Virus record (IMG/VR): IMGVR_UViG_3300021399_000003 | Location: 64,001-128,000 of that record | Length of the DNA: 64,000 nucleotides | Origin: a virus | Lineage: Duplodnaviria; Caudoviricetes | Strand: one strand, 5' to 3' | Shown here: in pieces, positions 8,239 to 28,029 of the stretch | How positions within the stretch are numbered: position 1 is the first letter of the stretch | Layout: each line of letters opens with the position of its first letter | Notes under the pieces: model-generated | Databases searched by the model: none | What the model was told of the DNA's origin: nothing | Seen by the model: only the letters and a program-made list of their open reading frames with translations | Translations under genes and position numbers: made by a program

Positions 8239-8309
8239 TAGACGCCTTATAAATAAAATAAAAATGGAGCCAAAATATAATTGCTGTTGTTGTGGCACAA
8301 TGGCGTCTA
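8239..8309 (-). ncRNA. Y-RNA-like family member (ACAGCAA motif)
   Basis: terminal stem TAGACGCC/GGCGTCTA enclosing ACAGCAA. Confidence 0.45.
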
Positions 8310-8313
8310 AAAT

Positions 8314-8390
8314 TAGCAGGCGTGGCTGGATTTGAACCAGCGAATGCATGGGTCAAAGCCATGTGCCTTAACCACTTGGCTACACGCCTA
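8314..8390 (-). tRNA. tRNA-Gln(TTG)
   Basis: cloverleaf; CATGG-CTTTGAC-CCATG; GTTCAAATC T-loop; ends GCTA. Confidence 0.92.
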
Positions 8391-9108
8391 TAATTTTATT
8401 ATACCATTCTATTAGTTCTTTTTTCTTAGACGGAATATTATTTTTTACACACCATTTTACAACTGCTTTATCAGAAACTCCATATTTTCTGCCTACTGCA
8501 GAAAAACTAGATTCAACAATTTCTTTTGCCAGTTGAATACCTTGCGGGCGTGCAGATATTTTTTCTTGTCTTTCTTGTATTTTTTGTTCTTTTTGACGTT
8601 GTTTTTCGTTTCGAGCAATATCTATTAAAGACGGTCTAATAGGATAGATTAAATAATCTTTTCTCCAAGAAGCTCCACTATTAATTGCTCGAATAGTTCT
8701 TCCAGAAACATTATATTTTGCACCAATAATATCGCTATTATCTAATGTATTTTTTAAATCATTAACAATATTATTAAAAATTTCGTCCGTCATTTTAATT
8801 GCATGAGGAGCATTTTGACCACCTTCTGTTCGATTATATCCATTATTAAAACTGTCATAATAAGAAATCCAATATTTTTCTTTTTCATCTAATTCGGATA
8901 CAAGACATTCTTCTAATATTTCAAAAGAAAAATTATTTAATCCATACAATCTCATATCTTTATATAATGGATTATTATAATTGACTATATTATTACCTAA
9001 ATAATCTGTTCTATGATTTCTCCAACGAGTTTTAATATCTTGTGCTTGACCAATATAAACTAATCCATTTATTAAATTAGTTATTTTATAAATACCACAT
9101 TGTACCAT
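8380..9108 (-). CDS. GIY-YIG homing endonuclease
   Basis: GIYKITN..VYIGQ, R...H, E..WI, GYN..GG. Confidence 0.88.
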   Translation of the reverse strand: MVQCGIYKITNLINGLVYIGQAQDIKTRWRNHRTDYLGNNIVNYNNPLYKDMRLYGLNNFSFEILEECLVSELDEKEKYWISYYDSFNNGYNRTEGGQNAPHAIKMTDEIFNNIVNDLKNTLDNSDIIGAKYNVSGRTIRAINSGASWRKDYLIYPIRPSLIDIARNEKQRQKEQKIQERQEKISARPQGIQLAKEIVESSFSAVGRKYGVSDKAVVKWCVKNNIPSKKKELIEWYNKIIGV

Positions 9109-9136
9109 AATATCACTCCTATTTGTGATTTAAATT

Positions 9137-9205
9137 ATAATATTGGCTTAATGAATAGGCATTATTATCTCAAAAGTTAATTACTCTTTTGCTACCCAAT
9201 ATTAT
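9137..9205 (-). promoter_or_regulatory. structured anti-SD leader of homing endonuclease (copy A)
   Basis: 3-way junction shared with 10406-10462; loop CCTATT complementary to AATAGG of RBS. Confidence 0.6.
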
Positions 9206-9206
9206 T

Positions 9207-9283
9207 TGGTGCGAGTAGAGGTAGTCGAAACCTCATCTCCTGGGTGGAAGCCAGGTATTCGAGCTGTTGAACTATACACCTGC
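9207..9283 (-). tRNA. tRNA-Gly(TCC), imperfect acceptor stem
   Basis: CCTGG-CTTCCAC-CCAGG; T arm GAGGT-TTCGACT-ACCTC; ACCA end. Confidence 0.7.
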
Positions 9284-9466
9284 ATAATGCCACTTTAACC
9301 GCTGTGGCCGCGTGCTCCCCAGGTACGCTTGAATCAGAGGCGCGGGCAAGTCTATCAACAAAGTCGCAAAGCGACTTTTCCGCTCTTTCTACACATGGTA
9401 GATGAGCTATGTAGTAACCCCGTGTTTAATGAGCTTTCTGCACGCTACTCTGGCCAGCTCAATATT

Positions 9467-9624
9467 TGTGGTGTGCTATTACGCCAAATCTCATGTTCCC
9501 ATTATCCGTAGGCACATCATACTCAAAAGGGCGTTCCACAATCGTAGCCTTTTGATACATTTCGCACCCACGGGAGAACTTAGAACTCCTTAGCTGGTGG
9601 CTGCTTCTAAGCCAACAGTCCACA
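9467..9624 (-). ncRNA. 23S rRNA H43/H44 (GTPase-associated centre) mimic with 100-nt hairpin insertion
   Basis: TGTTGGCTTAGAAGCAGCCACCA...GAGT[insert]GCGTAATAGCACAC closed by TGTGG/CCACA. Confidence 0.65.
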
Positions 9625-9626
9625 TT

Positions 9627-9722
9627 TGGCGACAGGCTTCGGACTTGAACCGAAACATCAGTATATACTAATTACTCTCTGATTAGCAATCAGATGCCTT
9701 ACCAAATTAGGCTTAGCCTGTC
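9627..9722 (-). tRNA. tRNA-Ser(GCT)
   Basis: TCTGA-TTGCTAA-TCAGA; long variable arm; GACAGGC/GCCTGTC-GCCA. Confidence 0.88.
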
Positions 9723-10387
9723 TTATCATTATCTTGCCATTTCCAAATATAGCCATAAGCGATATTCCTTAGTCCTCGTGCGCATTGACTAATATGGTTA
9801 CTACCTGATTCTTTTCCTAAACTTTTTGCAGCAGAATAACAAGAATAAAATTTATTGATTAAATTACCATTTAAATCATATTGACATAAAATATTATAGT
9901 TATTTTTTATTTGTTTTTCATTAAATAAATCATTTTTTAATTTTATTTCTTTGTTCAAAATAGTAGATAAAACATTCTCTGCGGTATAATTTTCAATGAA
10001 AAAATTAACATTTTGATTTTTTTGTATAGGTGTAAAACTTAAAGTGATTTTATTAGAATAATTTTCACATTCTTGAACAGGAATTAAATAACATTGATTA
10101 TTAAAGTAAGTTGCAAATAAATCAATTTCATTACTAGAATAATTATGTTTAATGTTTTCTTTACCTGATGTTGTTAGACTATATAAATTAAATTCAATTC
10201 CAGTATCTTTTTCTTTACAAGTTTTTACTTGTATTTTTAACAATTTCAACTTAATATCTAATATCATATCATATCTGCAATCTTCTCCAATTGGAATGCT
10301 TATATTATATCCTAAAGAAGTAAGATATGCTTGACATAATAATTCTGTTGTGATTCCTTTAATTTTAGTATCTACCATTTTTATCAC
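9713..10387 (-). CDS. PD-(D/E)XK homing endonuclease with NUMOD1-like C-terminus
   Basis: KG..TE, RYDMILD..KIQVKT, EIDLFA, QYDLNG...AYGYIWK. Confidence 0.82.
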   Translation of the reverse strand: MIKMVDTKIKGITTELLCQAYLTSLGYNISIPIGEDCRYDMILDIKLKLLKIQVKTCKEKDTGIEFNLYSLTTSGKENIKHNYSSNEIDLFATYFNNQCYLIPVQECENYSNKITLSFTPIQKNQNVNFFIENYTAENVLSTILNKEIKLKNDLFNEKQIKNNYNILCQYDLNGNLINKFYSCYSAAKSLGKESGSNHISQCARGLRNIAYGYIWKWQDNDKTG

Positions 10388-10405
10388 TCCTTTGATAAAA
10401 CTTTG

Positions 10406-10462
10406 TAGGGCTTGCGAAGGAGCGCATTATCTCATCAGTTAATTACTCTGATGCTACCCCTA
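10406..10462 (-). promoter_or_regulatory. structured anti-SD leader of homing endonuclease (copy B)
   Basis: same junction consensus as copy A; loop CTCCTT complementary to AAGGAG RBS. Confidence 0.6.
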
Positions 10463-10606
10463 GTGCGCCATCACGGATTTGAACCGTGGACTCCTTGATT
10501 AATGGTGGAGACCGCCAGAATTGCACTGGCACTATCAGTTTGTTCCTTTACTTCAATGCGCTTGCAGTCCCCAAGTCAAGTGCTCTACCAACTGAGCTAA
10601 TGGCGC
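10461..10606 (-). tRNA. tRNA-Lys(TTT) split in the anticodon by a 70-nt tRNA-like insert (10503-10572)
   Basis: exon1 GCGCCATTAGCTCAGTTGGTAGAGCACTTGACTT + exon2 TTAATCAAGGAGTCCACGGTTCAAATCCGTGATGGCGCA gives canonical cloverleaf. Confidence 0.88.
10503..10572 (-). ncRNA. nested tRNA-like element, Ala/tmRNA-TLD-like
   Basis: GGGGACT/GGTCTCC acceptor with G3:U70, A73, CCA; T arm GCCAG-TGCAATT-CTGGC. Confidence 0.75.
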
Positions 10607-10607
10607 A

Positions 10608-10682
10608 TGGCGTCCTTACTAGGAGTCGAACCTAGATTTTGAACTTAGAAGGTTCAAGTCCTATCCTTTAGACGATAAGGAC
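10608..10682 (-). tRNA. tRNA-Arg(TCT)
   Basis: TGAAC-CTTCTAA-GTTCA; GTTCGACTC; GCCA end. Confidence 0.9.
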
Positions 10683-11008
10683 ATTCTTTTATAATATTTT
10701 TCTTCATCTTTTCCGCAATTATCACACCAAGGAAGAATCCAACCAGTAGAATATTTTGTAGCAGGTTGGCCGCAAACACAACACGTTCGTGCGCTTAATT
10801 CTTCGTATTTATTTTCAATTGCATCTATTTCACGCCAATAAGTCATATCACATCTTGCAATTACATCAAGACTTCCCCATTTCTCTTTTAGGTCACAAAT
10901 GTAATAAGTTGGGTCAATAGCTTCACACTCTTCTATCATTTTTCGCGCAAGTTCAATCCAACCAGAAGGAATTGAAGAAAGCCATTTATAATTATTTACT
11001 TGCTCCAT
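10661..11008 (-). CDS. hypothetical protein (KEKWGSL motif, C-terminal CxxC pairs)
   Basis: ORF; GW..L, KEKWG, CCVCG, CDNC. Confidence 0.65.
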   Translation of the reverse strand: MEQVNNYKWLSSIPSGWIELARKMIEECEAIDPTYYICDLKEKWGSLDVIARCDMTYWREIDAIENKYEELSARTCCVCGQPATKYSTGWILPWCDNCGKDEEKYYKRMSLSSKG

Positions 11009-11430
11009 TCTTTTAACTCCATACCATGCTCTTTAAACCACCGAATAAGAGGCCATCGTTCGGAACAAATATTATCATATTTTTCATAGACTAACAACGC
11101 AAAATCTACATCATTAAATTGTTCTCCAATTTTTATGGTCTCGCTTAATACTTGAAGATGCTCCATCAACATATTGAAATCTATTTTATCTAGTTGTTTT
11201 TTATATTCGTGCAGGAAATCACAATTATTTGGATGCTTAGGAGAGCACTTGCCATTACATAGCCCATCGCAACTCTTTCCGGGCTTCAGCGGTGGAATAT
11301 CTAACCAAATAATTCCATTTTGACTTCTTCCTTTTTGAAGCCATTTTGGATTCCAAACCGCAGTAGAAAGCCCGACCAAATTAGGCGGGAAGTTACGAAT
11401 TTGAGCAAAATAGGAAATATAAATCTTCAT
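10996..11430 (-). CDS. DUF488-like hypothetical protein
   Basis: IYISYFA, LLVYEK..CSER pattern. Confidence 0.55.
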   Translation of the reverse strand: MKIYISYFAQIRNFPPNLVGLSTAVWNPKWLQKGRSQNGIIWLDIPPLKPGKSCDGLCNGKCSPKHPNNCDFLHEYKKQLDKIDFNMLMEHLQVLSETIKIGEQFNDVDFALLVYEKYDNICSERWPLIRWFKEHGMELKEWSK

Positions 11431-11444
11431 AAAATCCTTTCATC

Positions 11445-11556
11445 TAGGCACATTATTTTCTATTGCCCTACCTGCTGGGCGACATGCTAAATTTAGCACA
11501 ATCGGACTCGAACCGATGACTCATAGATTACCTATGTAAGTTGCTGTGTGCGCCTA
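11445..11556 (-). ncRNA. Y RNA (YrlA-like), circularly permuted tRNA domain
   Basis: terminal stem AGGCGCA/TGTGCCT with ACAGCAA; T arm, loop-closed acceptor stem, then D arm. Confidence 0.7.
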
Positions 11557-11636
11557 TTTATTATAATTTTAATTCTGGTTTCTTATTAAATTTGGCTTGC
11601 GGTTCTGCGATTGGTTTTTTAATGAAAATCCAATAG

Positions 11637-11711
11637 TAGAGGTCCCGAGCGGCCATGATCCGCTAATTGAAGATTACAAATCTACTATTTTGCCAATTAA
11701 ATTACAGGACC
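11637..11711 (-). tRNA. tRNA-Thr(TGT)-like, degenerate T loop
   Basis: GGTCCTG/CGGGACC; GTAGA-TTTGTAA-TCTTC; T loop ATCATGG. Confidence 0.55.
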
Positions 11712-11717
11712 AAATTC

Positions 11718-11800
11718 AAGGCACTAATAATTTACTTTAATATACTATTCAAATCTATATTTGTATTTGTAATTATAAAAGTAATTGCTGTATGTGCCTT
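11718..11800 (-). ncRNA. Y-RNA-like family member
   Basis: AAGGCAC/GTGCCTT stem followed by ATACAGCAA. Confidence 0.5.
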
Positions 11801-11814
11801 ATTTGTAATAATAC

Positions 11815-11915
11815 TAAGCCGTTTATTGTTTAATTGTGATGGACTTGAACCATCTCTCATTTTGTTTCTCAATCAAAATAATTTATCCACTTAAAAAGAT
11901 TGCTGTGACGGCTTA
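11815..11915 (-). ncRNA. Y-RNA-like family member with internal T arm
   Basis: TAAGCCGT/ACGGCTTA stem, CACAGCAA, GATGG-TTCAAGT-CCATC. Confidence 0.55.
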
Positions 11916-11919
11916 AATT

Positions 11920-12147
11920 TTAAGATTTCTTAGAAATAAATTTCATTTCGATTTTAGTATTTGCGGGAATAGAATATAAATCAAAATAATCCGCGGGCAA
12001 TTGACACATAATACTAGAACCCTCAATAGTAAAACAATCACTATACTCTTCTTTATCATTCTGTTTAAGAGTATTCATAAGCCAATGATGAATTGACTTA
12101 ACAAATTCAGCTTTGGTTGCTTGCGCGGACAATTCTTTCTTATCCAT
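11920..12147 (-). CDS. hypothetical protein
   Basis: ORF with RBS and own sigmaA promoter. Confidence 0.6.
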   Translation of the reverse strand: MDKKELSAQATKAEFVKSIHHWLMNTLKQNDKEEYSDCFTIEGSSIMCQLPADYFDLYSIPANTKIEMKFISKKS

Positions 12148-12260
12148 AATATTTATTTCCTTTCCTTTGATATATTTATTATATCAAAAATTCTAGAAAA
12201 AGTCAAGAAAGAAAGGGGAAGATTTTACGGTTGGGATAATCTTCAAACCCAGTTTTTAAA

Positions 12261-12337
12261 TAGTCGGAATGACACGATTTGAACGTGCAACCCTACGCTC
12301 CCAAAGCGTATGCTCTACCAAATTGAGCCACATTCCG
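12261..12337 (-). tRNA. tRNA-Pro(TGG)
   Basis: TACGC-TTTGGGA-GCGTA; canonical arms; ends ACTA. Confidence 0.92.
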
Positions 12338-12338
12338 A

Positions 12339-12414
12339 TAGCGAGCCTAACAGGATTCGAACCTGCGATCTTCCGGGAGACAACCGGATATTCTAGCCGC
12401 TGAACTATAGGCTC
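12339..12414 (-). tRNA. tRNA-Asp(GTC)
   Basis: TCCGG-TTGTCTC-CCGGA; canonical arms; ends GCTA. Confidence 0.92.
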
Positions 12415-12427
12415 AAATTAGAGTGGC

Positions 12428-13012
12428 TTATGGCCACTCGCCTAGAGGCATACCAAGCCCCGCGCGCTCTACATTGGTATTATAAAATACACCTTCAGTA
12501 GCAGGGCCAGTTAGAAGCTCATCAGCAATAATCTCATATAGAGTACTAATAACACCATGACAATCATTTAAATTATCTGCCGCGAATTGTACTACGCAAT
12601 TATTAAATACTACATAAGTAGTTCCAATCCACTGATAGCCTTCTTCAGCAGGACATACAGAATATGCATAAGCAGGATTACCCTTGAAAGCTGTATCAAA
12701 CAATTCAACCTTACTGGTAAAAGCGCGGTTAGAAGGAATACCATCTACATTTACAGCCAACTTAATATTACCAAAAGAAACTTCTGAAGGAAGAATTTGC
12801 TGCAGTGCGGCGACCTTATCACCATTATTACATGCTAGAACAATAGAAGGATTAGAGCCGCCAAAATTACAATTACAAGCAATCTGTGGGTCACCATCAA
12901 ATAGAGCCTCAAATTTACGAATAGCTATAGTCCAAGGTGGTAGAATCTTTAGTCTTACATCACTCATTTTGTTTTCTCCTTTAATATGAATCGTAGAATA
13001 ACAAATAAACAT
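12428..13012 (-). CDS. hypothetical protein
   Basis: ORF; likely start MSDVRLK after AAGGAG. Confidence 0.65.
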   Translation of the reverse strand: MFICYSTIHIKGENKMSDVRLKILPPWTIAIRKFEALFDGDPQIACNCNFGGSNPSIVLACNNGDKVAALQQILPSEVSFGNIKLAVNVDGIPSNRAFTSKVELFDTAFKGNPAYAYSVCPAEEGYQWIGTTYVVFNNCVVQFAADNLNDCHGVISTLYEIIADELLTGPATEGVFYNTNVERAGLGMPLGEWP

Positions 13013-13397
13013 CAGGGTTATTTTTCATAAATGAAGCGATTAATGCCAAATTTATGATATCTTGCTGTAAAATAGGAAGTATTTCATCATAATCCCAAAT
13101 GGAATCACCATCTTCTTCCCAAGTTTCTTTGTTCATAAAAGAAACAATAATGCGAATTAGCTCAAATACTTGCTGCGGAGTTTCGATAAGATAGTCATAG
13201 CCAGTATCTTTATAAATTGGAAAAATATTTACTACCTTATTTCTTAAACCCCAATTCTTTCGCCAATAAAGAATTTCTACTCCTCCATCTTGATTATCAA
13301 ATTTTTCATCCAAAGGGTATACCATTCCTTCTGGTAGTATTTCACGCGTAATCTTGCGATGATTTGAGCGGGCAATTATACCATTATCCAATCCCAT
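12981..13397 (-). CDS. hypothetical protein (MGLD...YWRK family)
   Basis: ORF with RBS; MGLD/YWRK motif common in phage small proteins. Confidence 0.65.
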   Translation of the reverse strand: MGLDNGIIARSNHRKITREILPEGMVYPLDEKFDNQDGGVEILYWRKNWGLRNKVVNIFPIYKDTGYDYLIETPQQVFELIRIIVSFMNKETWEEDGDSIWDYDEILPILQQDIINLALIASFMKNNPDVYLLFYDSY

Positions 13398-13667
13398 GCT
13401 TATTACTCCTTTTATGAAATAGCTTTAAGATCAGCTAACCGCGCATCCGTTTATTTGCTATCGTGATGGTGATAGGCTTTTCTTAGGAACCTAACGAACC
13501 TATACTCTTTGCCAGCTACATTAGGCGGCTCATGGCACCGCTTATCCCCGTAGACCATTTTAGGGGTTCCTTCGTACTTCGGAAGGGCTAGCTCTCTTAT
13601 GTGACTTCGCGCGTTCACATAAGTGAGACATTGAGTAAGCATAGAGAATAAGTCCTCTATGTGACTA

Positions 13668-13744
13668 TGGCGGCCCGCCACGGACTTGAACCGCGGACAT
13701 CTTGCTTAACAGGCAAGCGCTCTAACCAACTGAGCTAGCGGGCC
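13668..13744 (-). tRNA. tRNA-Asn(GTT)
   Basis: CTTGC-CTGTTAA-GCAAG; GCCA end. Confidence 0.93.
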
Positions 13745-13812
13745 AAGGAGGTCCCGTTTATTACTCTAACGGGCAAGAGTGAGGTCATATCAAAGAACAC
13801 ACATTAGGGCAA

Positions 13813-14396
13813 ATACCCTATTTAATAAAACCGTTGCGGCCTTCGCCGTACTTGTATTATCCTTCTAACATATTCAACCACGTTGGAGATGAAGGCTGAG
13901 CCACGGGTAGCAATTCCGGACTTCTTCACCCCGTCTTTCGACCAACAACGGAGAGACTGTTTACTCTCAAATTTCACCTAAACCATTCAGCACAATAATA
14001 TCTAATCAAATCTATTAGATTCATTGTCGTTTTGGGCTACTTTTTCTGTGAACCTCGCTTATATCCTATTTCTAGGTTTCAACGACATCAAGCGTCTTGT
14101 TGGCATTTCCAAGGTTTGCGGTGGTAGCCAGCCACATCTAAAACGCCTAACTTGGATTCAGGTCACGCTTTTAACGCTCACCTTCTATTGCGACGCCGCG
14201 AGGAGCCAAGTTTTTGTTAGCGGATAACCAAGCACCTATCCTTAACATTAGGAGTTTCTCCATATCGCTAGTCATTACTGATTTCGCGGCCTTGGCTTGA
14301 AAGTATCCCATCAAGTTTGGGGCTGTTATTCAGATAGTCCAAGCAGAGTGGTTAGCTCTTCTTCACTTGGTTCAACCATTTTATTAAATAGGGTAT
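13813..14396 (-). ncRNA. large structured ncRNA, ROOL-sized candidate
   Basis: 584-nt ORF-free region closed by perfect 18-bp terminal helix; dedicated promoter at 14424-14452. Confidence 0.5.
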
Positions 14397-14423
14397 CTAC
14401 TTCCTTTCCTTGTTTCTATAATC

Positions 14424-14452
14424 ATTATAGCATGATTTTCAGAAAAAGTCAA
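14424..14452 (-). promoter_or_regulatory. sigmaA/sigma70 promoter
   Basis: TTGACT-17 nt-TATAAT with extended -10 TG. Confidence 0.75.
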
Positions 14453-14972
14453 ATATTAAAGTGAGCTGTTTTCATCGTGGCCGGTCCACTCTTATCCACG
14501 CTTTCTTGTACACCCCGGGTTCCCTTATACGGGTGCTCGCACCCGCCCAATATCACTGGGGAGCTCTTTGGCATTTCTACTCGCTGATCAGGACGGGAAA
14601 TGCGCTCTTTAATATTTATTGTAAAGATTAGTCTCAACTACGCCACCAGACGGGCTTATAAGAAGCAATCAAATGCTCTGATTATTTGGTTAGTTGATTA
14701 ACAGCATCGCCACGAGAAGGCTCTTTACTTGATGCCGTAACATCCTAGGATTTGTTCGCTGAGTATTAAGTCCAATAACGAGTCAGGACTCCTAGAATGT
14801 GATAGTTACAGCGGTCGCTACATACGGTTAGCGCCGTTGGCCTGGCTTCTTTTATTTTATAGTCGCGTTTTCCCAGCGTAACTAACAAACGAATGTTAAC
14901 GCGACTTGTCACATTAGCGGGAGGTGACTTGCGTCTGATAGGTTATCATCGCAAACCATTCAGACATAAACT

Positions 14973-15037
14973 AGGCGGATTTTTAGCTATATAGTTTACA
15001 AAATCTATTGCTTAAATAATAGTTGCTGTGGCCGCCT
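14973..15037 (-). ncRNA. Y-RNA-like family member
   Basis: AGGCGG/CCGCCT stem, CCACAGCAA. Confidence 0.5.
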
Positions 15038-15211
15038 TGTATCTTATCATTGTAAAGAATTGAGACATATAAATTGTGCTAAAGGACTTGCACCTTTAGG
15101 AGCAGCGACTGACTTGATTGCGCACATCACATCAGTAGGGCTTTAATCATAATCTTCTATTTTCCACTCAACTGCTTTTTCATACTCTATGTTTTTAAGA
15201 GATTTTCTTTT

Positions 15212-15285
15212 TGTTCGAAGCATTGCGATTTGAACGCAACCTTGCCCCTCACAGCGGGGCCGTGCTGCCGCTACACTATACTTCT
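15212..15285 (-). tRNA. degenerate tRNA (loop GCTGTGA; His/Thr ambiguous)
   Basis: D arm GTGT/GCAC, GCCCC/GGGGC stem, T arm TTGCG-TTCAAAT-CGCAA. Confidence 0.55.
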
Positions 15286-15628
15286 AATCTCTGCCGCACC
15301 ATAATTAGGCTGTACGGGCCTTAATATATGGGTTGTACGTGCGACACATTTCATATGGCTTTATACTCACTACACAATTTTTCTTACATATTTATTATAG
15401 CAGATTTTCTGCTAAAAGTCAATTATTTTTCTTTTCTATTTTGTCAACAACTGGTGCCCATTCGCCGCAACCTTCACATAGCCAAGGCTCTTCAGAAAGA
15501 ATAATTTCTTCATCTTCTTCAACTGGGCCAAATAGTTTTAGAAAACAATCTTTACAAAACTCTGCCATTTTATTATCCTTTCCCTTTACTATAATTATTA
15601 TACTATAATTTTAAAAGAAAGTCAAATA

Positions 15629-15844
15629 CTACTTAGTTGGAATCCAAGAAAACTTTCCGCGGCCTCCGTTCCACGCCTGATTCTCTTCTACAAGTTCAAA
15701 AGATGCACAACTACTCTCCTTAAAATAACCATCACCATATTTTTCAAATAGATGGTCAATAGTATCCTGATAAATAACGTTATCTATATTTTTATAAAGC
15801 TGGTCAAGAAGATATGATAGCTAGCCCTTAGTTAATGCTTGCAT
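15629..15844 (-). pseudogene. 71-codon ORF interrupted by in-frame TAG at codon 8
   Basis: AGAAAGGA RBS, MQALTKG*LSYLLDQ...WIPTK*. Confidence 0.5.
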
Positions 15845-15900
15845 AATTGTTTCCTTTCTCTGCTATAATTATTATACTATAATTTTAGAAGAATGCCAAA

Positions 15901-16084: not shown

Positions 16085-16218
16085 TGGTGCCCCAGACGGG
16101 ACTTGAACCCGTACACCCTCACGGATAGCGGATTTTGGTCGTGGGAAGGAGTGCTGCTCTCCAACAAGCCACTGGGCCCACGTAAGTCCGCTGCGTCTGC
16201 CAATTCCGCCACCAGGGC
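16085..16218 (-). tRNA. tRNA-Leu(TAA) split in the anticodon by a 47-nt minihelix-like insert (16136-16182)
   Basis: GCGGA-CTTA|AAA-TCCGC restored on removal; Leu D loop GGAATTGGCAGAC, long variable arm, ACCA. Confidence 0.88.
16136..16182 (-). ncRNA. nested tRNA minihelix-like element
   Basis: CGTGGG/CCCACG-ACCA; T arm GGAG-AGCAGCA-CTCC. Confidence 0.7.
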
Positions 16219-16938
16219 ATAAAAACCTGATGTAACCCTCACGCAGCTAGATGGTTACTTTGAATAGTACTTTAAGGTATACTGCTAATATATAGGCTAT
16301 CAGGCGTAGCCTTAACAAGTAAATGTGTGGTTGTTCGATATTTGCTCCTTTTATTTCTGAACCACACTAAGAAGCCCTTAAATCGACACTCCTCGAACAG
16401 GGTGCGTCCGCGACCATCACGCCGCTATGCATTGTTAACAATGGGCGATTTTTATCGTTGTTCGCCGCAACTACCTAGGTAATAAGTCTCCTAGTGGTGC
16501 GCTTCTTTGAGAGGCGTAAGGAGAACATTTGCGGTGGCGCCTCACAATTAACCGCAATTTCCCTTATAAAGCCCAGTGGGTGGACTCTGGCGCCGAAGTT
16601 TTATTTTCTAGTTTGTGGTGAACTTCAAACCCTTTATAAACTCCATTAATTGCTTCATACTAGAAAAGTAATTAATTTCATCGTTTCATAATCATCTTGT
16701 GATTATGCCGAATACGCTTTCACGTATTCTAAAACTCCTTGTACGCTTGGTACATGAGATAGCGGTGACGCCCTTCAAAAGTACTGGCCGCAATTTTTCG
16801 TTCAGCGTCTAATCCTGCCACTCATCAAGCTTTTCAGCTTGCTCACGGCGAGTCCAAGAAGAAGAAAATACAGTACGAGAAGTCTTACGCACAACTATCA
16901 TTCCTTTCCTTGTTTCTATAAATATTATATCACAATTT

Positions 16939-19086: not shown

Positions 19087-19098
19087 TTGGTTTCCTCC

Positions 19099-20258: not shown

Positions 20259-20323
20259 ATATTGCGGCTTTAAGCCAGCCGCACGGCTGATTCGATTATG
20301 GCGATTTATAATGTTTATAAATA

Positions 20324-20965
20324 TTATGTGCTATTTTTATCGTATATCATATATTCCCATTTATATCCGCCAGTAGTCTTACGTTTTCCATTACATACTT
20401 CTTGAATATGATTACTGCGGCAACCAATAGCTTCTGCTGCCTCTCGTGCCGAAGAATACACTTTAATTAATGTACCATCTTTTAATAACTGTTTAACAGG
20501 TTTACTATACAAATGTTGCATAGTTTGATAACCTCTTAATATCCGTTCTTGTGATGGAATATCTTTTAAAGCTTGAGATACTGTTGTATCACAATATCCA
20601 GTAATTTCTTTAATAGATTTTTTACTATATCCCTCATTCCATAAATTAATAATTAATTCATAGCTGGCATAAGGTTTTCCATCGCCGCCAATAGTAGCAT
20701 TATAACCATTAGAAAATGAATTATAACTTTCAATCCAAAAACGTTCTTTTTCATCTAGTTCTTCCAAAGTGCATTCTTCTACTATTTCAATATGAAAATT
20801 TTCAATTCCATATTTATTCATGGCAGAATATAATGGACGATGTTCTTTTGATGACCGTTTTGCGTCTTTACAATGTTCTTTCCAACGACGTTCAATAGTA
20901 AAAGCAGTTTTGCCAATATAAATTTTTCCATTAATATCATTAATAATTTTATAAATGTATGGCAT
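20324..20965 (-). CDS. GIY-YIG homing endonuclease with NUMOD1-like C-terminus
   Basis: YIYKI..YIGKT, RWKEH, GYN..GG, GGYKWEY. Confidence 0.87.
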   Translation of the reverse strand: MPYIYKIINDINGKIYIGKTAFTIERRWKEHCKDAKRSSKEHRPLYSAMNKYGIENFHIEIVEECTLEELDEKERFWIESYNSFSNGYNATIGGDGKPYASYELIINLWNEGYSKKSIKEITGYCDTTVSQALKDIPSQERILRGYQTMQHLYSKPVKQLLKDGTLIKVYSSAREAAEAIGCRSNHIQEVCNGKRKTTGGYKWEYMIYDKNST

Positions 20966-21488
20966 AGTTAAATACCTCCTATTTATAATAGGACTAAAGT
21001 GGTTTGATTATAAAGTATAGTTTACTAAGTTCATAGATAAACACTTCTCCCAATCCACTTGAGTCCTGAAAATTCAGGAAATTTTAAAATCTGTGTCTAC
21101 GGACACTTCCTCCCGAATCAATAACATTTGATAACCCAGCTGCCTACTGGGGAGCCAGGGTAACTTTGCTACAGGTGCACCGGTATTACCGCTCATGTCG
21201 CTCCTAACGACTTAATTACATAAATCAACCGGTTGTTTTAAATGAAGTGTCTTCTATCATAGGTCATGACTTCTATGGCAGTTATTACTTCATTTAATAT
21301 GCTGTATTTAATTGGTTTTTCCTATTTATATAGCGCCGATAAGACCATTTGGAGTAACAGTTTGCTCTCCTTTTGCGCTCTAACTTATATTGCACCCTCT
21401 GCTTCACAGGAATCGAACCCGATATAAGTTAGAAACTTATCTTTTAGATAAGATTAAGTTTTTCACAGATAAAACTTTAAAAACTGGC

Positions 21489-21561
21489 TGGTTGCAGGGG
21501 TGGTTGCTGCCACCACGGAGTCTGGTTTATGAGGCCAGATTGAATACTGATTCTCCCTGCA
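21489..21561 (-). tRNA. tRNA-Met(CAT)-like, non-canonical D and T loops
   Basis: TGCAGGG/CCCTGCA-ACCA; CTCATAA loop; T loop GGCAGCA. Confidence 0.65.
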
Positions 21562-22042
21562 TTATTTGGTGAGTTCCCTCACCTTGTATAATAATTATAT
21601 CAAAATTTTTAATAAAAGTCAAGTATTTTCTTCAGCTAAAATGTCCTTAATTTCCTCATCACACATACAATCTTCACATTCATATACTTTTACGGTATTT
21701 ACATTAGTTTTTCCGTAGTAGTCAACTATTCTATCTACCGCAGCGCCTAACGTTGTTCCTATAGTAAATCCGCCCTCTGTATGACAAGTTTTATCAATTT
21801 CATCCCAAAATTCAATTATATAACGCACTATCATAATATTTTCTCCCATATAGTATAAATACTATTATCGTCATATTGATTATTAGAAAATTGTTTAATC
21901 AGATCAATTGAAGTCATATGTAAAAGTCCATCTGAAGTTTTCCATGAAACCATTTTATTCTGCATTTTATTCTTATCTGCGGCGATAAGAATAATAAAAT
22001 CTTTAATTGTTATTTTTTCTAGTCCGCGTACTTTATTCCATC

Positions 22043-22693
22043 TCATACAAACTCTTTCATATCTTCCCATTTAATTTTTACAATTATACGTTCGCCGCGA
22101 CGATTGCGCAATTCAATAGCAGGTCTACATACTACTCCTTCCATTTCACGTTCCTCTTCCGCGATTACAGAATTAGGATGGGTCTTTACATATTCTTCTG
22201 CTGCGTATAAGGAACCAGTGCCTACAATAGGCACAGCCTTAATTCCGAACATTTTTGCAGTTGTTTCTACCCATTCGCGCTCCTGATAGTTATCGCCAAT
22301 AAGCACATCAAAGAGAATAAAATCTACACCGTTGGGAATATACTTTCCACCGCCCTTCTGAATCTTGCGGCCATAACCTTCACCGAAAAGAATAACTTCC
22401 TTTTCGCCAAAAACCTGTTCAAAAATCTGAGCATTAACCTCACCGCCGAACAACTCATTCAAACGAGTAACAAGTTCTGCGGGAATAGCAGCATTATCGG
22501 TGCGACCACCAAAGGTAACAGTATGGCCATCCCAACATACGCGAATGTTAGTGCCATCAACCTTCTCAGTCCAAATCCAGCAATTATCGCTGAGATATTC
22601 TATAGTTGGGTCACGAAATACTCCCGGAAGTAGCTTTTTAGTTCCAGTTGTGTCTCTTTGATAGAGAGTATCAATCTTTTCATACTTTCTCAT
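22043..22693 (-). CDS. ATP-dependent RNA ligase (Rnl2-like)
   Basis: TEKVDGTN motif I, FGEGYG, FDV, EGVV, KIK. Confidence 0.82.
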   Translation of the reverse strand: MRKYEKIDTLYQRDTTGTKKLLPGVFRDPTIEYLSDNCWIWTEKVDGTNIRVCWDGHTVTFGGRTDNAAIPAELVTRLNELFGGEVNAQIFEQVFGEKEVILFGEGYGRKIQKGGGKYIPNGVDFILFDVLIGDNYQEREWVETTAKMFGIKAVPIVGTGSLYAAEEYVKTHPNSVIAEEEREMEGVVCRPAIELRNRRGERIIVKIKWEDMKEFV

Positions 22694-22755
22694 GTGTTTT
22701 GTTCCTTTCTACTTACTATAATAATTATAGCAAAAATTATATAGAAAGTCAAATA

Positions 22756-23109
22756 TTAAATTTCCTTATATCCATAATGAGTAAGAAGTTGCCGCATATT
22801 TGCGACACCAACAGGATTCATGCTATGGATATGAAAACCTACAAGTGGAATTTGATTTTCTACAATATATTTACAAATATCATAACCTGATTTAGCAAGA
22901 GTGTCATCTATTTCATGCCCTTCACCCAAATCATGGTCAAGGTCAATAATTATATTATAAAACTCCTCATTATAATAGTTTAGAAAGAAAATTGCTTCTT
23001 CTACGCTACGGCAAGTAATAGGAATCCATTCCATATGGGTATAGTTACCCAACGTCTTGAAGAAAGTATCATCTTCACGAATATCATCTACATAGATATA
23101 AATATTCAT
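22756..23109 (-). CDS. cyclic-phosphate-processing receiver-domain protein
   Basis: YVDDIR, DLDHDLG, SGYD, IHSMNPVG. Confidence 0.75.
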   Translation of the reverse strand: MNIYIYVDDIREDDTFFKTLGNYTHMEWIPITCRSVEEAIFFLNYYNEEFYNIIIDLDHDLGEGHEIDDTLAKSGYDICKYIVENQIPLVGFHIHSMNPVGVANMRQLLTHYGYKEI

Positions 23110-23179
23110 ATCTCTCACCCTTTCTATAATTATTATACTATAATTTCTATATTTAGTCAAGAAAAAAGAAGATGAACTT

Positions 23180-23965
23180 TCATTCATCTTCTTCTTTCAC
23201 TAAATATTCATCACTAAATAACATTTCAAGAGTAATATTATCGCGTTCCCAGTATGGAATGCGAACGAGAGGAATGTTGTGGGAAAGGGCGTATTGATTT
23301 TTTTCTTTATCGCGTTGCTGCTGCTCTTTTAATCCATTTCGTGCCTGCCATTTGCCCCATGTTTCTTGATAATGTTGAATACCATCAAATTCAATTAAAC
23401 GGATTAATTCATTATTTTTATTATATATTCCAAAGTCATACCAATAAGGATGTTTATTTTTTCCTAGCAAATTATCAAATCGTACTTCAGGTTTAAAATT
23501 GATATTATTTTCTTTTAAAATTTTTGTTATATTAACTGCTCCAACTGATTTTTCTCTTTTTATACACCCACAAGAAATCGTATGTAAACTACGTAAATTA
23601 TTAGCATCTACATCGCATTCATTTCCGCAAGCACATTTACAATGCCATATGGCATTTTGACTTATGTTACTTCCAGTTTTATAAAGAGCAGTTAAATATC
23701 CAAATGTTTGACCAGTAATATCTTTAGTTAATTTATCACCTATAATTTTACTTTTCATACATCCACAACTGGTATCTCTTTGTAAATTACGAAAATTCTT
23801 TACACAATAATTTCCGCAATGTTTACATAAACAATTCCAAAAGGTATGAGTACCTTTGTTGGGAGCTCGTCCTATTATTTTAAAATTCTCATCTTCATAT
23901 CCAGTTCTATCTTTAAGTGTATTACCTGCTACACCATTAAACCACTGTAATTCTTCATATAACAT
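23180..23965 (-). CDS. putative homing endonuclease (Cys-rich repeats + Vsr/DUF559-like nuclease)
   Basis: CxC.CG/SCGC repeats, YDF, IEFDGIQH, RD..K, RIPYW. Confidence 0.7.
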   Translation of the reverse strand: MLYEELQWFNGVAGNTLKDRTGYEDENFKIIGRAPNKGTHTFWNCLCKHCGNYCVKNFRNLQRDTSCGCMKSKIIGDKLTKDITGQTFGYLTALYKTGSNISQNAIWHCKCACGNECDVDANNLRSLHTISCGCIKREKSVGAVNITKILKENNINFKPEVRFDNLLGKNKHPYWYDFGIYNKNNELIRLIEFDGIQHYQETWGKWQARNGLKEQQQRDKEKNQYALSHNIPLVRIPYWERDNITLEMLFSDEYLVKEEDE

Positions 23966-23989
23966 AACATCACCTAAAAGAGCCCGTTC

Positions 23990-25522
23990 TTAATGAATGG
24001 GCTCATATCTCTTACTGTTCAGCTTTTCATACATCATGTCCTCAGCCTTCTTGCCAGACATAATCATTTCAAAGATTACAGGAGAGCAACCAGAAACAGT
24101 AGTTACGTCAGGGCCAACGTCCAAAACTGTATTATTACGTGCGTTTACATTCCAAAAAACAAGAGAAGGCATCTTGTATCCAGAATGGCTCCACTTATCA
24201 CGCATCTTATCCATAAAGGTTTGTACCTGATTGGCACTGTAGCCATTATTTCTATTCCAAGAGGAATATCCCTGTGCGGAATCAATTTCTTGGTCACTGA
24301 TAATGACAATGGTTTCAGGCATATCTGCCTGACGCAGATGATTCCGAACAGCAGTATTCAGCACAAGGTCAAATACAGACTGTAGATTGGTGTTTTCGCA
24401 AAGATTCGTCTTTACGATACGGTCAACCTTGTCGCAGAAGTCCACGCCGCGAGTCTCAACAAACTTCGCCGTGCGGCTGAAGCTGATGTAAGAGTTTGCG
24501 AAAGGTCCCTTATTACGCTCTGCGGCATAAAGAGCAAGAGAGACTGCGACATCAATAGGAGCAACGCTACCAGCACCACTCGTCATACTTCCGCTTGTAT
24601 CGGCGACAACAAGGGCATTCAGGGACATGCCATGGAAGTAATCAGTTAGATTCTCCCAATACTTGTTAATCATCAGGCGGTCGGTATTGTCAAGGGCAAT
24701 ATTACTGCCACGGCCATACCAGCTATAGTCCGAACCCATAAGCTTAATGGCCTTAGCAACCACATCATAAGGATATAGTGCGGCTGCATTAACCTTGGTA
24801 GAGGTATCCTTGGCAAACGCTTCATACTTCGCCTTGATTAGATCACGACGAGCAAAAGCGTTCTTATAAATCAGGCCAGCACGAGAAGGAATCTTGTCAA
24901 ATTCAATCTCATTCCAGCGATTTGTGGACATAAGGCGCTCCAGTACACGAATACGCTCACGAAGGTTAGAAAGCAGTACACGATACTGACGAGAGGTTAG
25001 ACCCATAGTATGGGCAGTTAGACGTCCATAACGCTTAGTCTTGGCAGAAGAAGCGTTCTCGGAAGCTGCCCACTTACCAGCAAGGGAAATAGCACCCTTG
25101 GTCTTGTAGTCAAGGGCAAGCTGCTTACCAAGAGCATATAGAGCCTCATGCTCACAGGAAGTCCCTACGAGAGCATATAGGTCGTCCCAGCGGCCATACT
25201 CAGCAATCTGGTCAAGATTGCGAAGTACAGCATCACGATCTACATCAGCAAGCCAATGTAGGCATACACGGAAAAATCTTCTTTCCCCTTGGCCGCCGCG
25301 CACGTCCCGCTCGTAGAATAGGCACTTTAGGGCATATACAGGGTTCTCCTGATAGGCTTCCTTAAAAAGCAGAATACAATCACTTTCGGTGCGCTGACGA
25401 TAAGCTGCGCCGAAAGAGAAGAGGTCATATAGCTTAGAGCTAGTAGTGGTTCGCGCAACAGCATGATTTTCGGTATACTTATAAGTATTTTGAGAAGCCA
25501 TAGCATTGTAAAGACGATTCAT
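23990..25522 (-). CDS. DUF2828 / Ro60(TROVE)-like protein with vWA domain
   Basis: RDVRGGQGER, YGRWDDL, MIDAS DTSGSM, ISDQE, FWNV. Confidence 0.8.
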   Translation of the reverse strand: MNRLYNAMASQNTYKYTENHAVARTTTSSKLYDLFSFGAAYRQRTESDCILLFKEAYQENPVYALKCLFYERDVRGGQGERRFFRVCLHWLADVDRDAVLRNLDQIAEYGRWDDLYALVGTSCEHEALYALGKQLALDYKTKGAISLAGKWAASENASSAKTKRYGRLTAHTMGLTSRQYRVLLSNLRERIRVLERLMSTNRWNEIEFDKIPSRAGLIYKNAFARRDLIKAKYEAFAKDTSTKVNAAALYPYDVVAKAIKLMGSDYSWYGRGSNIALDNTDRLMINKYWENLTDYFHGMSLNALVVADTSGSMTSGAGSVAPIDVAVSLALYAAERNKGPFANSYISFSRTAKFVETRGVDFCDKVDRIVKTNLCENTNLQSVFDLVLNTAVRNHLRQADMPETIVIISDQEIDSAQGYSSWNRNNGYSANQVQTFMDKMRDKWSHSGYKMPSLVFWNVNARNNTVLDVGPDVTTVSGCSPVIFEMIMSGKKAEDMMYEKLNSKRYEPIH

Positions 25523-26142
25523 ATTTTATTTCTCCTTTTCATTTGGTCAGCCCTGGACTAGGGCTCGTTTCTTTCTTACAATATTATTATAGCAGAATTT
25601 TTAGTAAAAGTCAAATAATTTTTCTTAAATGAAATCGCCAAATTTTTCTCTTTTGCTTTATTTCATTACGCTTGGATTTTTCAGTAAGATGAAAAAATTG
25701 AGCTTGCAATTCATTGAATTCTTGCAGCAACTCAGTATGCGCTTGCTGTAATTCATTAAATTTTTCTTTATATTCTAATCCAAACATTTATTGCTCCTTT
25801 GGTCCAATATAGGTATCCCAAATATATTGTAAAACTTTTTGCTCCGCTCCCTTACAGCCATAATTCATACGATAAATGACATCTACTGGTGCTTTTCCAA
25901 AGAAAACGCGATAAGCATAATTGTATACGTCTTTCATCGCATCATATAAATTATCATCTTGAATAAACATAATTACTCCTTAGTAAGTTGTGTGGGAGAA
26001 ATTGAAAACATTTCATGCGTTCTCGTGTCCTCTACATAACAAATCATTCCTTTTTCAGTTAAATTAATATCTAATATTTTTCCGCCCTTCATGAATCCGT
26101 CATACCAAAATTTAATTGAATCAAACTTTTTAATATCTTCCA

Positions 26143-26604
26143 TTATTCATGTTCCTCCATAATTTTAGCGGTGTTTATTAAAATTTGAGTCAATTGATTA
26201 CTAATGCCAAAACGTTTGGCATTAATTTCTATACTTTTAAGTAAATTACCCGACTGTTGTCGTTCAGCAGATGCTTTCCAATCAGCCATCATTTCAATTA
26301 AATCTAACAAAGACATGTCATTTATGCCTTCTTTCCAATGCTGTGGATGGTGTTTATTTACGGCATAATGATGGTCAAGTGCTGGTTTAAGTGCCTCTAA
26401 TTCTTTTTTATATTCTTCTGAGCCATATTCAATTTTATTCAAATTTTCTGTATGTTCTGCGAATAATTCTACTTCAGGAGAGACTAATTTACTAGCATCA
26501 TGTTCTACACCACGAGTAGTTAATCTATCAGTAAAAAAGCGGATATACTTACGCACTTTTTCTATGTGCTTTTGAGTTTCCACTCTACATTCGTCAAGTG
26601 TCAT
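26143..26604 (-). CDS. HD-like (DUF5662-type) protein
   Basis: HDASK, HHY..NKHHPQHW, EMMADW. Confidence 0.7.
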   Translation of the reverse strand: MTLDECRVETQKHIEKVRKYIRFFTDRLTTRGVEHDASKLVSPEVELFAEHTENLNKIEYGSEEYKKELEALKPALDHHYAVNKHHPQHWKEGINDMSLLDLIEMMADWKASAERQQSGNLLKSIEINAKRFGISNQLTQILINTAKIMEEHE

Positions 26605-26861
26605 TGTTCTTTACCTCCGAAAGGATAAAAGCCTTGAAAGCATTATATCTTATGAACCAATAGTCATTTATACTATTATAGAAAGATACTCCTTCTTTCT
26701 TTTCTTCAAAATTATGAATATTTTCAAAAGTTTCTCGATTGTTATCAGTGTTAATAAAAATAACGTTCATAAAATGCTCCTTTTCTTTTATATAATAATT
26801 ATACTATAATTTCTACTAGAAGTCAAATAGAAAAAACGCACGGTTTCCCGTGCATTTTGAA

Positions 26862-26931
26862 AGCGTCCGGTCAGTGCTGCCCTGACTATCAAGCGGGTTA
26901 CAGCCGCCGTTTGCTGATTCGGTACGGACGC
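26862..26931 (-). tRNA. tRNA-Tyr(GTA)-like, non-canonical
   Basis: GCGTCCG/CGGACGC; GGCGG-CTGTAAC-CCGCT; T loop GGCAGCA; no long variable arm. Confidence 0.6.
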
Positions 26932-27250
26932 ATTATTTTGTCACTTCAATTATTGTACATAGACACATTAAAAGGCAACCTGCTAAATTAATGCCACGCA
27001 CCCATGTAGCATTATCTTTAAAAGTATAAAAACAAAAAAGATTTAAAGCCGCTATAAAAGCATAAAATAGTTTCATCGTCCACTAAAATCCTCCAAAAAA
27101 GTCATAAAAGACATCATCCACGCGGAACCATACACTACCCAAAATTGCCAAGTTTTGATATTGAAACCAATATTAAACATTACTACTATAAGAATGGTGC
27201 CAAAAATAATGCGACCAAATTTGTATTTGTTCATTATGTTCTCCTTTGAA

Positions 27251-27404
27251 TAGTCGGGAACCTGGGACTCGAACCCAGGACACACGGCTTATTGGTCATG
27301 AAGGATAGATTTGAACTATCATTATCTTCTGCTAGACAGAAGTAGTTTTCCAATTTAACTTACTTCATGAAGGCCGCTGCTCTGACCTACTGAGCTAGTT
27401 CCCG
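27251..27404 (-). tRNA. tRNA-Ile(TAT) split in the anticodon by a 77-nt full tRNA (27293-27369)
   Basis: GCGGC-CTT|ATAA-GCCGT restored on removal; canonical D and T arms. Confidence 0.87.
27293..27369 (-). tRNA. nested cloverleaf with CTA (amber) anticodon
   Basis: CATGAAG/CTTCATG-ACCA; D arm AGTT/AACT; CTTCT-GTCTAGC-AGAAG; GATAG-TTCAAAT-CTATC. Confidence 0.72.
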
Positions 27405-27815
27405 ATAAATCTCGCGGCTTCTTCTCCTATTGGCATCTTCCGGGCCTCAATCCATCCGAGCCGCCACTTGATTCCACCGCGAATGTCGTTATGAAGGAGC
27501 AAACACTCGCGTTGTGTATACTCCAAGAAATATTTATGTATCATTTGCTCTTATTGGTAGATACTAGACCTCACCGCCTATTTTTCACGCACGGATTCGT
27601 GGCCACCACTAACGAGGACGACTTCCGCTGAATCAAATTATCACGGCCGACCCAGATACCGGGCAACCTCTTGTACTATTCCGGACTAGCTCTCGGTGCA
27701 AGCTCACCGGCATTCTATTCAGAGAATCATATTGTCGCGTTTGCCGTTTCAACAATATTAGCTATATCTGCTTATTTCTTTTGTTCGCGATACTGGCAGA
27801 AATAAGAACAGCCAT

Positions 27816-27889
27816 TGGCAGGAACTGAAAGATTTGAACTCTCATCTGGCGGGTTGGAGCCGCATATGTTGCCATTACACCAAGTTCCT
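27816..27889 (-). tRNA. tRNA-Trp(CCA)
   Basis: GCGG-CTCCAAC-CCGC; GCCA end. Confidence 0.88.
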
Positions 27890-27941
27890 AAATTACAATC
27901 TCTCCCTATAATCTTTAGTTATTTTTCTGTTCTCTTTTCTA

Positions 27942-28029
27942 GGCACGAAAAACTATCCAATTATAGGGAGATTGTATCAAACCATCTACATTTCTTAATA
28001 CTTATGTAAAAAGTATTGCTGTACGTGCC
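27942..28029 (-). ncRNA. Y-RNA-like family member
   Basis: GGCACG/CGTGCC stem, TACAGCAA; promoter just upstream (28068-28096). Confidence 0.5.

Follow-up and report, generated by a model that had tools for sequence, protein, structure and literature searches.

The closest described counterpart of the system reported here is the Ro60/Y-RNA particle. In bacteria, a tRNA mimic forms part of one Y RNA, whose gene lies on the same strand as Ro60 and no more than a few kb from it (PMC4201824; for phage phiLo, PMC12135203). The conserved motif on the 5' side of Y RNAs, thought to contact Ro60, reads GNCGAA(N0-1)G in bacteria and GGUCCGA in animals (PMC4201824). A phage protein, gp130 of Bas63, has been described in the PhageMaP preprint as Ro60-like by structure comparison and as countering the Ppl defence, and its authors guessed that some of the neighbouring 'tRNA genes' might be Y RNAs, none of which was identified (bioRxiv 10.1101/2024.10.10.617714). 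Here, we describe six loci (L1 to L6) in a window of 64,000 nucleotides (nt), bases 64001-128000 of the single-contig, 169,459-bp virus record IMGVR_UViG_3300021399_000003 (G+C 35.7%). They share a terminal stem and the motif ACAGCAA, together called the handle, and the same window encodes a protein with a DUF2828 domain. All six belong to an extensive family of small RNAs that is strand-specific, shows covariation and is linked with a family of Ro60-like proteins. These handle RNAs are probably small non-coding RNAs (ncRNAs) that serve as Y-RNA-like partners of the DUF2828 protein, the handle binding the protein and the variable module presenting tRNA look-alikes. The handle recurs next to genes for Ro60-shaped proteins in hundreds of phages and assemblies of gut bacteria, which makes an uncatalogued relative of the Ro60/Y-RNA particle the most likely identity of the system. 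In the literature we found no paper describing the handle RNAs or tying DUF2828, ACAGCAA and Y RNAs together.

Everything relevant to the handle RNAs in the window lies on the minus strand. A sequence-only reading of this DNA had proposed the six loci as a family; all six were present, and we refined their ends to include the 3' G. The loci and the protein gene are as follows.

8238-8309, minus strand: L1, atypical; stem UAGACGC(C)/(G)GCGUCUA followed by G; motif (A)ACAGCAA, 8281-8287.
11444-11556, minus strand: L2, long; stem UAGGCGC/GUGCCUA followed by G, one G-U pair; ACAGCAA at 11541-11547.
11717-11800, minus strand: L3, AT-rich interior; stem AAGGCAC/GUGCCUU followed by G; ACAGCAA at 11785-11791.
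11814-11915, minus strand: L4, long; stem UAAGCCG(U)/(A)CGGCUUA followed by G; ACAGCAA at 11900-11906.
14971-15038, minus strand: L5, short (68 nt); stem (A)AGGCGG/CCGCCU(A) followed by G; ACAGCAA at 15023-15029.
27939-28031, minus strand: L6; stem UUGGCACG/CGUGCCUA followed by G, U-U at position -8; ACAGCAA at 28016-28022.
23990-25522, minus strand: DUF2828 and DUF7788 gene, 510 amino acids (Pfam PF11443, 3e-27; PF25043, 8e-37).

The motif ACAGCAA is exact in all six loci, as had been claimed. The geometry of L2 to L6 is fixed: the 5' strand of a 7-bp stem occupies -9 to -3, two nt separate it from ACAGCAA, the interior that follows varies, and the 3' strand ends in CU(A/U) with a G after it. 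The only departures from a perfect stem are the G-U pair of L2, an A-A at -9 in L5 and the U-U of L6. In L1, a 14-nt insertion separates the 5' stem strand from ACAGCAA. Because three relatives retain exactly the same insertion form, L1 is a real sub-type and not a product of decay. The sequence-only reading had also described stems of different sequence with pairing preserved; the pairing and its covariation held, but the stem ends proved to be conserved, 5' (A/U)AG and 3' CU(A/U)-G, and free covariation is confined to the inner four pairs. The unconstrained minimum-energy folds of all six loci close the terminal stem. ARAGORN called no tRNA among the six, the score of 29 bits of the tRNA model RF00005 was not reached by L4 (18.9 bits) or L2 (15.7 bits), and Rfam 15 contains no family matching the handle RNAs.

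Comparative data extend this geometry far beyond the window. Homologues of the 23990-25522 protein gave us 79 viral loci, which were turned so that the gene always reads on the plus strand and then searched with a simple descriptor (stem of at least 6 bp, gap of 0-3 nt, ACAGCAA). It gave 138 matches on the DUF2828 strand and 3 on the opposite strand, and 176 versus 15 with a relaxed motif. An unbiased table, in which every 7-bp stem followed by G was taken and the 7-mer two bases after the 5' strand was tallied, was led on the gene strand by ACAGCAA (102 occurrences) and UCAGCAA (15), with no comparable 7-mer on the opposite strand; UCAGCAA and GCAGCAA are the variants of the handle motif. Geometry and covariation are fixed across 134 unique elements. 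In an alignment of 40 short elements, both-side changes occur in all seven stem pairs, compensated cells number 73 compared with 12.9 in shuffles, and every cell is paired (100%), whereas sliding the partner column leaves 29-49% paired. In the whole genome of the virus, 5 of the 18 same-strand ACAGCAA sites pass a strict stem test (null 2.7%, P ~9e-5), namely L2 to L5 and one site outside the window; L6 fails the strict rule. L2 has an orthologue with a perfect 8-bp stem in the relative L004, in which L3 and L4 also have orthologues (at 20328 and 20210, respectively). In the five orthologues of L6 the ends are retained through compensatory changes, and hardly anything of the interior is conserved.

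Several simpler approaches were uninformative. By count alone the window has no excess of ACAGCAA (13 copies, every one on the minus strand, for 10.3 expected), a stem test with free geometry finds a 6-bp stem near a random site ∼20% of the time, and relaxing the motif by one mismatch together with G-U pairs swamped the output with noise. The covariance model that the sequence-only reading had called for was only a partial success, and a fixed-geometry descriptor was used in its place. This model, R1, built from the 40 short elements, recovered L5 at full length (26.1 bits, E 2.4e-4) and aligned L1 end to end with a 13-nt insert, although weakly (13.7 bits, E 0.64), but it found longer members only as fragments because their interiors are too long.

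Co-occurrence with DUF2828, which had been put forward as a check, was confirmed whichever partner the search started from, and with the two on the same strand. Starting from the protein, the fetched flanks of 57 of the 79 viral loci contain at least one element, copy number reaches 9-10 elements per 20-kb locus, and for 41 of the 176 elements the distance to the DUF2828 gene is at most 200 nt. Starting from the RNA alone (AAGACAC NN ACAGCAA, 30-60 nt, GUGUCUUG), more than 112 viral stretches match. DUF2828 was present in the fetched piece for 46 of 80 viral stretches, often 50-100 nt away and on the same strand, and elsewhere in 22 of the 32 remaining viral records, including 11 of the 12 that are at least 90% complete; the overall figure for viral records is 68 of 78. 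Of 120 matched stretches from bacterial assemblies, 90 have DUF2828 no more than 8 kb away. Most of these assemblies are metagenome-assembled genomes from gut and rumen; Clostridium tertium DSM 2485 and Oribacterium parvum ACB1 are also represented. The co-occurrence spans phages of Firmicutes, Actinobacteria and Proteobacteria.

Among cultured phages, tblastn detected DUF2828 homologues in 696 of 50,697 records. Four of these phages were opened, and in all four the elements adjoin the DUF2828 gene. In Listeria phage LMTA-57, three elements fill the 396-nt gap upstream of the gene, near which an RtcB-type ligase is also encoded. Mycobacterium phage Jobypre has three elements in a 382-nt gap after a gene annotated 'Ro-like RNA binding protein', and Bacillus phage 2S-4 has several beside its DUF2828 gene. 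The fourth is the E. coli phage Bas63 (Escherichia phage JohannRWettstein), in which four elements lie in the tRNA array just after bas63_0130. This gene, directly upstream of the array, encodes gp130, a homologue of the window protein with 35.6% identity over residues 17-492. Whereas the preprint identified no Y RNA there, we predict four handle RNAs between or beside the annotated tRNAs (MZ501086.1, ∼82072-82139, 82239-82297, 82694-82762 and 82781-82907). Exact RNAs are thereby predicted in a laboratory coliphage whose DUF2828 gene already has a counter-defence phenotype, which makes the idea accessible to bench work. The fourth (8421-8547 in our locus L081) overlaps an opposite-strand 50-amino-acid 'hypothetical protein', bas63_0137, and this open reading frame (ORF) call may be spurious. 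Genome annotation also gains, since handle RNAs would account for many of the 'empty' gaps that phage tRNA arrays contain, and for some small ORFs that are spurious.

The 23990-25522 product belongs to PHROG 850, 'RNA-binding protein'. A PDB sequence search with it returned no chain at E≤10, and the ESM Atlas gave only viral DUF2828 clusters. An AlphaFold2 model computed from 29 homologues (pLDDT 84.9, pTM 0.84) was compared with known structures by Foldseek, in which ranks 1-13 were all Ro60, over ∼520-570 aligned columns (E ∼1e-8, TM ∼0.55). The top full-length matches were Ro60 of Xenopus, human, Deinococcus and Thermus phage phiLo (among them 2i91, 1yvr, 9kop of phiLo and 2nvo of Rsr), at 10-15% identity, and von Willebrand factor A (vWA) domains ranked far behind. 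The MIDAS (metal-ion-dependent adhesion site) sequence D-x-S-x-S is invariant in the 29 homologues (D308, S310, S312). The protein is therefore predicted to be Ro60-like over its full length, with a HEAT-repeat ring and a C-terminal vWA domain bearing a MIDAS.

The interiors of the elements, which had been described as unrelated and partly tRNA-like, are indeed variable, and L2 and L4 have tRNA-like bodies. That of L2 comprises a T-arm, a closed acceptor-like hairpin and a D-arm, bounded by UCUAU/AUAGA, which corresponds to a permuted tRNA mimic of the YrlA type. L2 aligns with the full length of the Rfam YrlA model (11441-11535) at 34.3 bits, below the gathering score of 69. The closing stem implied by the Rfam alignment, UAGGUA/UGCCUA, was rejected for UAGGCGC/GUGCCUA, which matches both the family geometry and the orthologue. 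YrlA (RF02553) gave no match on the five other loci with E up to 5. A long mycobacteriophage element (L082) also gives a full YrlA-model alignment below threshold, at 39.3 bits, so that the sub-threshold matches land on a long element in two unrelated phages. The interior of L4 is a non-permuted tRNA-like body with a D-arm-like hairpin, an anticodon-arm-like hairpin and the T-arm GAUGG-UUCAAGU-CCAUC; its tRNA-model match (11830-11902) is weak.

In a cargo set of 431 unique elements, lengths are bimodal, with short forms of 50-70 nt and long forms of 100-130 nt. A T-arm is present in 61 of the 93 elements of 100-139 nt. Short elements have 7-nt loops in 83 of 267 hairpins, compared with 15-24 in shuffles, and 50 short-element loops fit the anticodon-loop pattern YU-NNN-R-N, compared with 0-3. 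The leading anticodon-like loops are CUUUUAA (22, Lys UUU), CUGUUAA (7, Asn GUU) and CUGCUAA (4, Ser GCU). Orthologues of L5 in L001, L002, L004, L006 and L008 carry 7-nt loops of the Lys-like (CUUUUAA) or Asn-like (CUGUUAA) kind. In many short members (L047, L121, L184, L189, L190) a second small helix, (U)GG ... CC(A), brackets the anticodon-like hairpin, giving the layout closing stem, ACAGCAA loop, 2-4-bp helix and 5-bp stem with a 7-nt loop.

Downstream of the DUF2828 gene and on the same strand lie a homing-endonuclease-like ORF and two RNA-repair genes.

23180-23965, minus strand: HNH/homing-endonuclease-like ORF, 261 amino acids, between the DUF2828 gene and the cREC_REC and RNA-ligase genes.
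22756-23187, minus strand: protein with a cREC_REC cyclic-phosphate-processing domain (Pfam PF20274, 2e-16).
22043-22693, minus strand: RNA ligase (Pfam PF09414, 3e-16; PHROG 548).

Set beside Ro60 and its Y RNAs, the handle family agrees on every point that could be tested. Both pair a protein of the ring-plus-vWA type, with a predicted Ro60-like fold in our case, with small RNAs near its gene and on the same strand, several of them here, and RNA-repair genes stand in the neighbourhood. In both, the RNA's 5' and 3' ends form a terminal stem beside a large internal loop, here 7 covarying bp, with a short conserved motif on the 5' side by that loop. As with YrlA, one RNA per genome has a permuted tRNA mimic, here together with shorter companions; the YrlA tRNA-like module is present in L2, partly present in L4 and absent from the short members. 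The likeness fails on the motif, the Rfam score and the protein family, since the YrlA scores are 34-39 bits against a gathering score of 69 and the linked protein is DUF2828/DUF7788, lacking a Pfam TROVE match. In addition, the copy number is higher than for Y RNAs and many cargoes are bare anticodon-arm look-alikes, and protein-RNA binding is a prediction in the handle-RNA system. The predicted fold, the co-occurrence and the YrlA-type mimic nevertheless point to the arrangement that the sequence-only reading had suggested, in which one Ro-like protein would be served by several RNAs with a common stem module.

On this reading, strong early-type promoters would drive joint transcription of the handle RNAs, tRNAs and small ORFs, and the handle RNAs would be excised as species of ∼50-130 nt closed by the 7-bp stem. 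The protein would recognize the shared handle, made up of the stem, whose conserved ends are (A/U)AG...CU(A/U)-G, and of ACAGCAA, which is largely unpaired and lies shortly 3' of the 5' strand; this would mirror the 5'-strand GGUCCGA/GNCGAA motif that Ro60 is proposed to recognize on Y RNAs. The interior would be the effector module, either a complete mimic of a tRNA, as in L2 and L4, or a small hairpin, in relatives often a copy of an anticodon stem-loop. The particle could then show tRNA look-alikes to host tRNA-targeting nucleases, as decoys or baits, or alternatively tether the neighbouring RNA-repair enzymes or host exonucleases, and phage translation would be protected during infection. 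The enrichment of anticodon-loop look-alikes gives substance to such a decoy or adaptor role. If so, DUF2828, a widespread family of unknown function, gains a concrete and testable candidate RNA partner, the Ro60/Y-RNA principle would apply to a second protein family, one that recognizes another motif, and the cargo of tRNA parts suggests that phages have a programmable platform for decoys or tethers in their contest with hosts over tRNAs.

A number of observations weigh against this proposal. The window itself places 2.4 kb between the DUF2828 gene and the closest element and 9-16 kb between the gene and the rest, which are in the tRNA region; the linkage in this window rests on relatives. 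The record IMGVR_UViG_3300021400_000864 (L116; 75,124 bp, direct terminal repeats, apparently complete) has an element and neither DUF2828 nor TROVE; in the records with an element and without DUF2828, a DUF2828 profile and a TROVE search both came back empty. The L116 element, at 1011-1065 and with the Lys-like CUUUUAA, may be an orphan relying on a protein supplied in trans. At Pfam E≤0.01 the 23990-25522 product matches only PF11443 and PF25043 and not TROVE (PF05731). Where Y RNAs have GNCGAA(N)G or GGUCCGA, the handle RNAs have ACAGCAA, and the canonical motifs are absent (PMC4201824), a difference that the sequence-only reading had already noticed. In predicted folds the unpaired share is 67% for the motif and 51% for the interior, a moderate and only weakly distinctive excess. 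Only about one-fifth of the short elements have an anticodon-like loop, and that of L5 in the window has drifted from the Lys and Asn versions of its relatives. Finally, we infer the expression and processing of the handle RNAs, their binding by DUF2828 and their role as decoys or tethers.

Some of these facts would be expected if the handle were instead a processing or stabilizing signal of tRNA/ncRNA operons, read by an RNase, a ligase or another factor of host or phage, with DUF2828 merely co-travelling in an accessory tRNA/RNA-repair module. Elements alternate with tRNAs at a spacing of 5-14 nt in both the window and Bas63 (L1 begins 6 nt past tRNA-Gln, and 5 nt separate the end of L3 from tRNA-Thr), no intrinsic terminator follows the window elements, the conserved 3' CU(A/U)-G and 5' (A/U)AG could be cleavage sites, and the orphan element sits in a complete record without DUF2828. 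However, the three copies of Jobypre come right after the Ro-like gene, where there is no tRNA array, many elements are within 200 nt of the gene, and the protein is encoded within 8 kb of most of the bacterial-assembly elements (the 90 of 120 mentioned above). Moreover, pure punctuation needs no tRNA-mimic or anticodon-like cargo. We therefore regard this explanation as unlikely.

The cargo itself raises a second alternative, namely that the elements work independently of DUF2828, as decoys or pseudo-substrates in their own right that engage anticodon nucleases or tRNA-modifying enzymes of the host, and that the handle only stabilizes them. The tRNAs for Lys(UUU) and Asn(GUU) are those cut by PrrC/PARIS-type and colicin-E5-type nucleases, and these are the foremost among the enriched anticodon-loop look-alikes; the long forms also contain tRNA-like bodies. 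Nevertheless, the majority of elements lack an anticodon-like loop, and a 7-nt motif and ends kept across phyla argue for one common reader, for which only DUF2828 tracks the elements. Independence from DUF2828 is thus improbable. A third possibility, that the elements are cis-acting operators through which DUF2828 autoregulates its own mRNA and neighbouring operons, would account for the 22 same-strand elements that precede the gene start by no more than 200 nt and for the leader region of LMTA-57, filled by its three copies. Similar numbers are nevertheless found downstream of the gene or many kb away, the leader of the window gene has none, and an operator needs no multiple, diverse copies with tRNA-like cargo, which makes this explanation very improbable. 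That the loci are chance matches or decayed tRNA pseudogenes without shared function, as the unenriched motif count and the frequency of 6-bp stems at random sites might suggest, is refuted by the strand asymmetry, the 7-mer enrichment, the compensatory changes at seven of seven pairs and the conservation from mycobacteriophages to coliphages.

A further resemblance is to the Class I RNAs of dictyostelid social amoebas (Aspegren 2004; Kjellin et al. 2021). The Class I RNAs of Dictyostelium are abundant, developmentally regulated and have been unexplained for twenty years. Like the short phage elements of 50-70 nt, they have a covarying stem that joins the ends and a variable remainder. According to their description, they measure 42-65 nt, start with AAG, end in CUGU and have a covarying stem of 6 bp and, at the 5' strand, a motif of 11 nt; the rest of the sequence varies, and they were called unique to Dictyostelia (PMC7919456). 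The search pattern used in D. discoideum was GTTGRCCTTACAGCAA ... GTCAACTG (PMC5054030). The ACAGCAA core is identical and equivalently placed, at the end of a conserved motif that adjoins the 5' strand on its 3' side (GUUGRC-CUU-ACAGCAA ... GUCAAC-UG in D. discoideum), the AAG start and the CU-G-type end recur, and in both cases there are many clustered gene copies. In contrast, of the 11-nt motif (CCUUACAGCAA in D. discoideum), the four positions before ACAGCAA are not conserved in phages, 3-4 nt separate the stem from the core compared with 2 nt in phages, and the end is CUGU rather than CU(A/U)G. Class I genes are eukaryotic, with a Dictyostelium upstream sequence element (DUSE) promoter ∼60 nt upstream, whereas the phage promoters are of the sigma-70 type, and their only proven binder is the RNA-recognition-motif protein Rnp1A. 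We found no paper linking Class I RNAs with Ro60, nor a published link to DUF2828; the sole hint of DUF2828 in eukaryotes is indirect, the term occurring in plant papers. It is conceivable, and we propose it only tentatively, that handle RNAs and DUF2828 form one ancient ribonucleoprotein family across phages, bacteria, giant viruses and eukaryotes. Class I RNAs would be its eukaryotic members, a DUF2828-type protein would be their missing partner, and the phage particle would be a modular display of tRNA parts, notably Lys and Asn anticodon arms, that disarms tRNA-cutting defences. The common handle offers a first lead on the function of the Class I RNAs.

The loci of the window belong to a dense ncRNA zone at 8-28 kb with 13 tRNAs (ARAGORN). 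Its operons are headed by strong TTGACT-17-TATAAT promoters of the bacterial sigma-70 type; L6 is the first gene after one of them (28096-28068) and is followed by tRNA-Trp. A DNA-level near-identity search of cultured phages matched only a tRNA-Pro, which indicates that there is no close cultured relative. The other features of the zone are listed below.

13818-14394, minus strand: ROOL RNA, 298 bits, in the same tRNA/ncRNA zone.
16591-16686, minus strand: drum RNA, 60 bits, in the same zone.
16487-16523, minus strand: abiF RNA match, just below threshold (32.5 bits vs 37), adjoining drum.
10464-10606, 16088-16218 and 27254-27404, minus strand: tRNA-model matches with inserts of ∼60-80 nt (131-151 nt in all).
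9290-9620, 13440-13670, 14470-14960, 26870-26940 and 27410-27810, minus strand: G+C-rich intergenic stretches between tRNAs, with no ORF and no Rfam match.
20324-20965: GIY-YIG endonuclease gene (Pfam), interrupting the tRNA region.
8380-9108: GIY-YIG endonuclease gene, recognized by eye only, interrupting the tRNA region.

The G+C-rich, ORF-free stretches look like further structured RNAs. Inside the tRNA-model match at 27254-27404, ARAGORN calls a tRNA with anticodon CUA at 27293-27369, and an RNA ligase gene lies near the three insert-bearing matches. ROOL (below threshold, 88.5 bits vs 99.1), drum, DUF2828 and handle RNA also occur together in Listeria phage LMTA-57 (L080).

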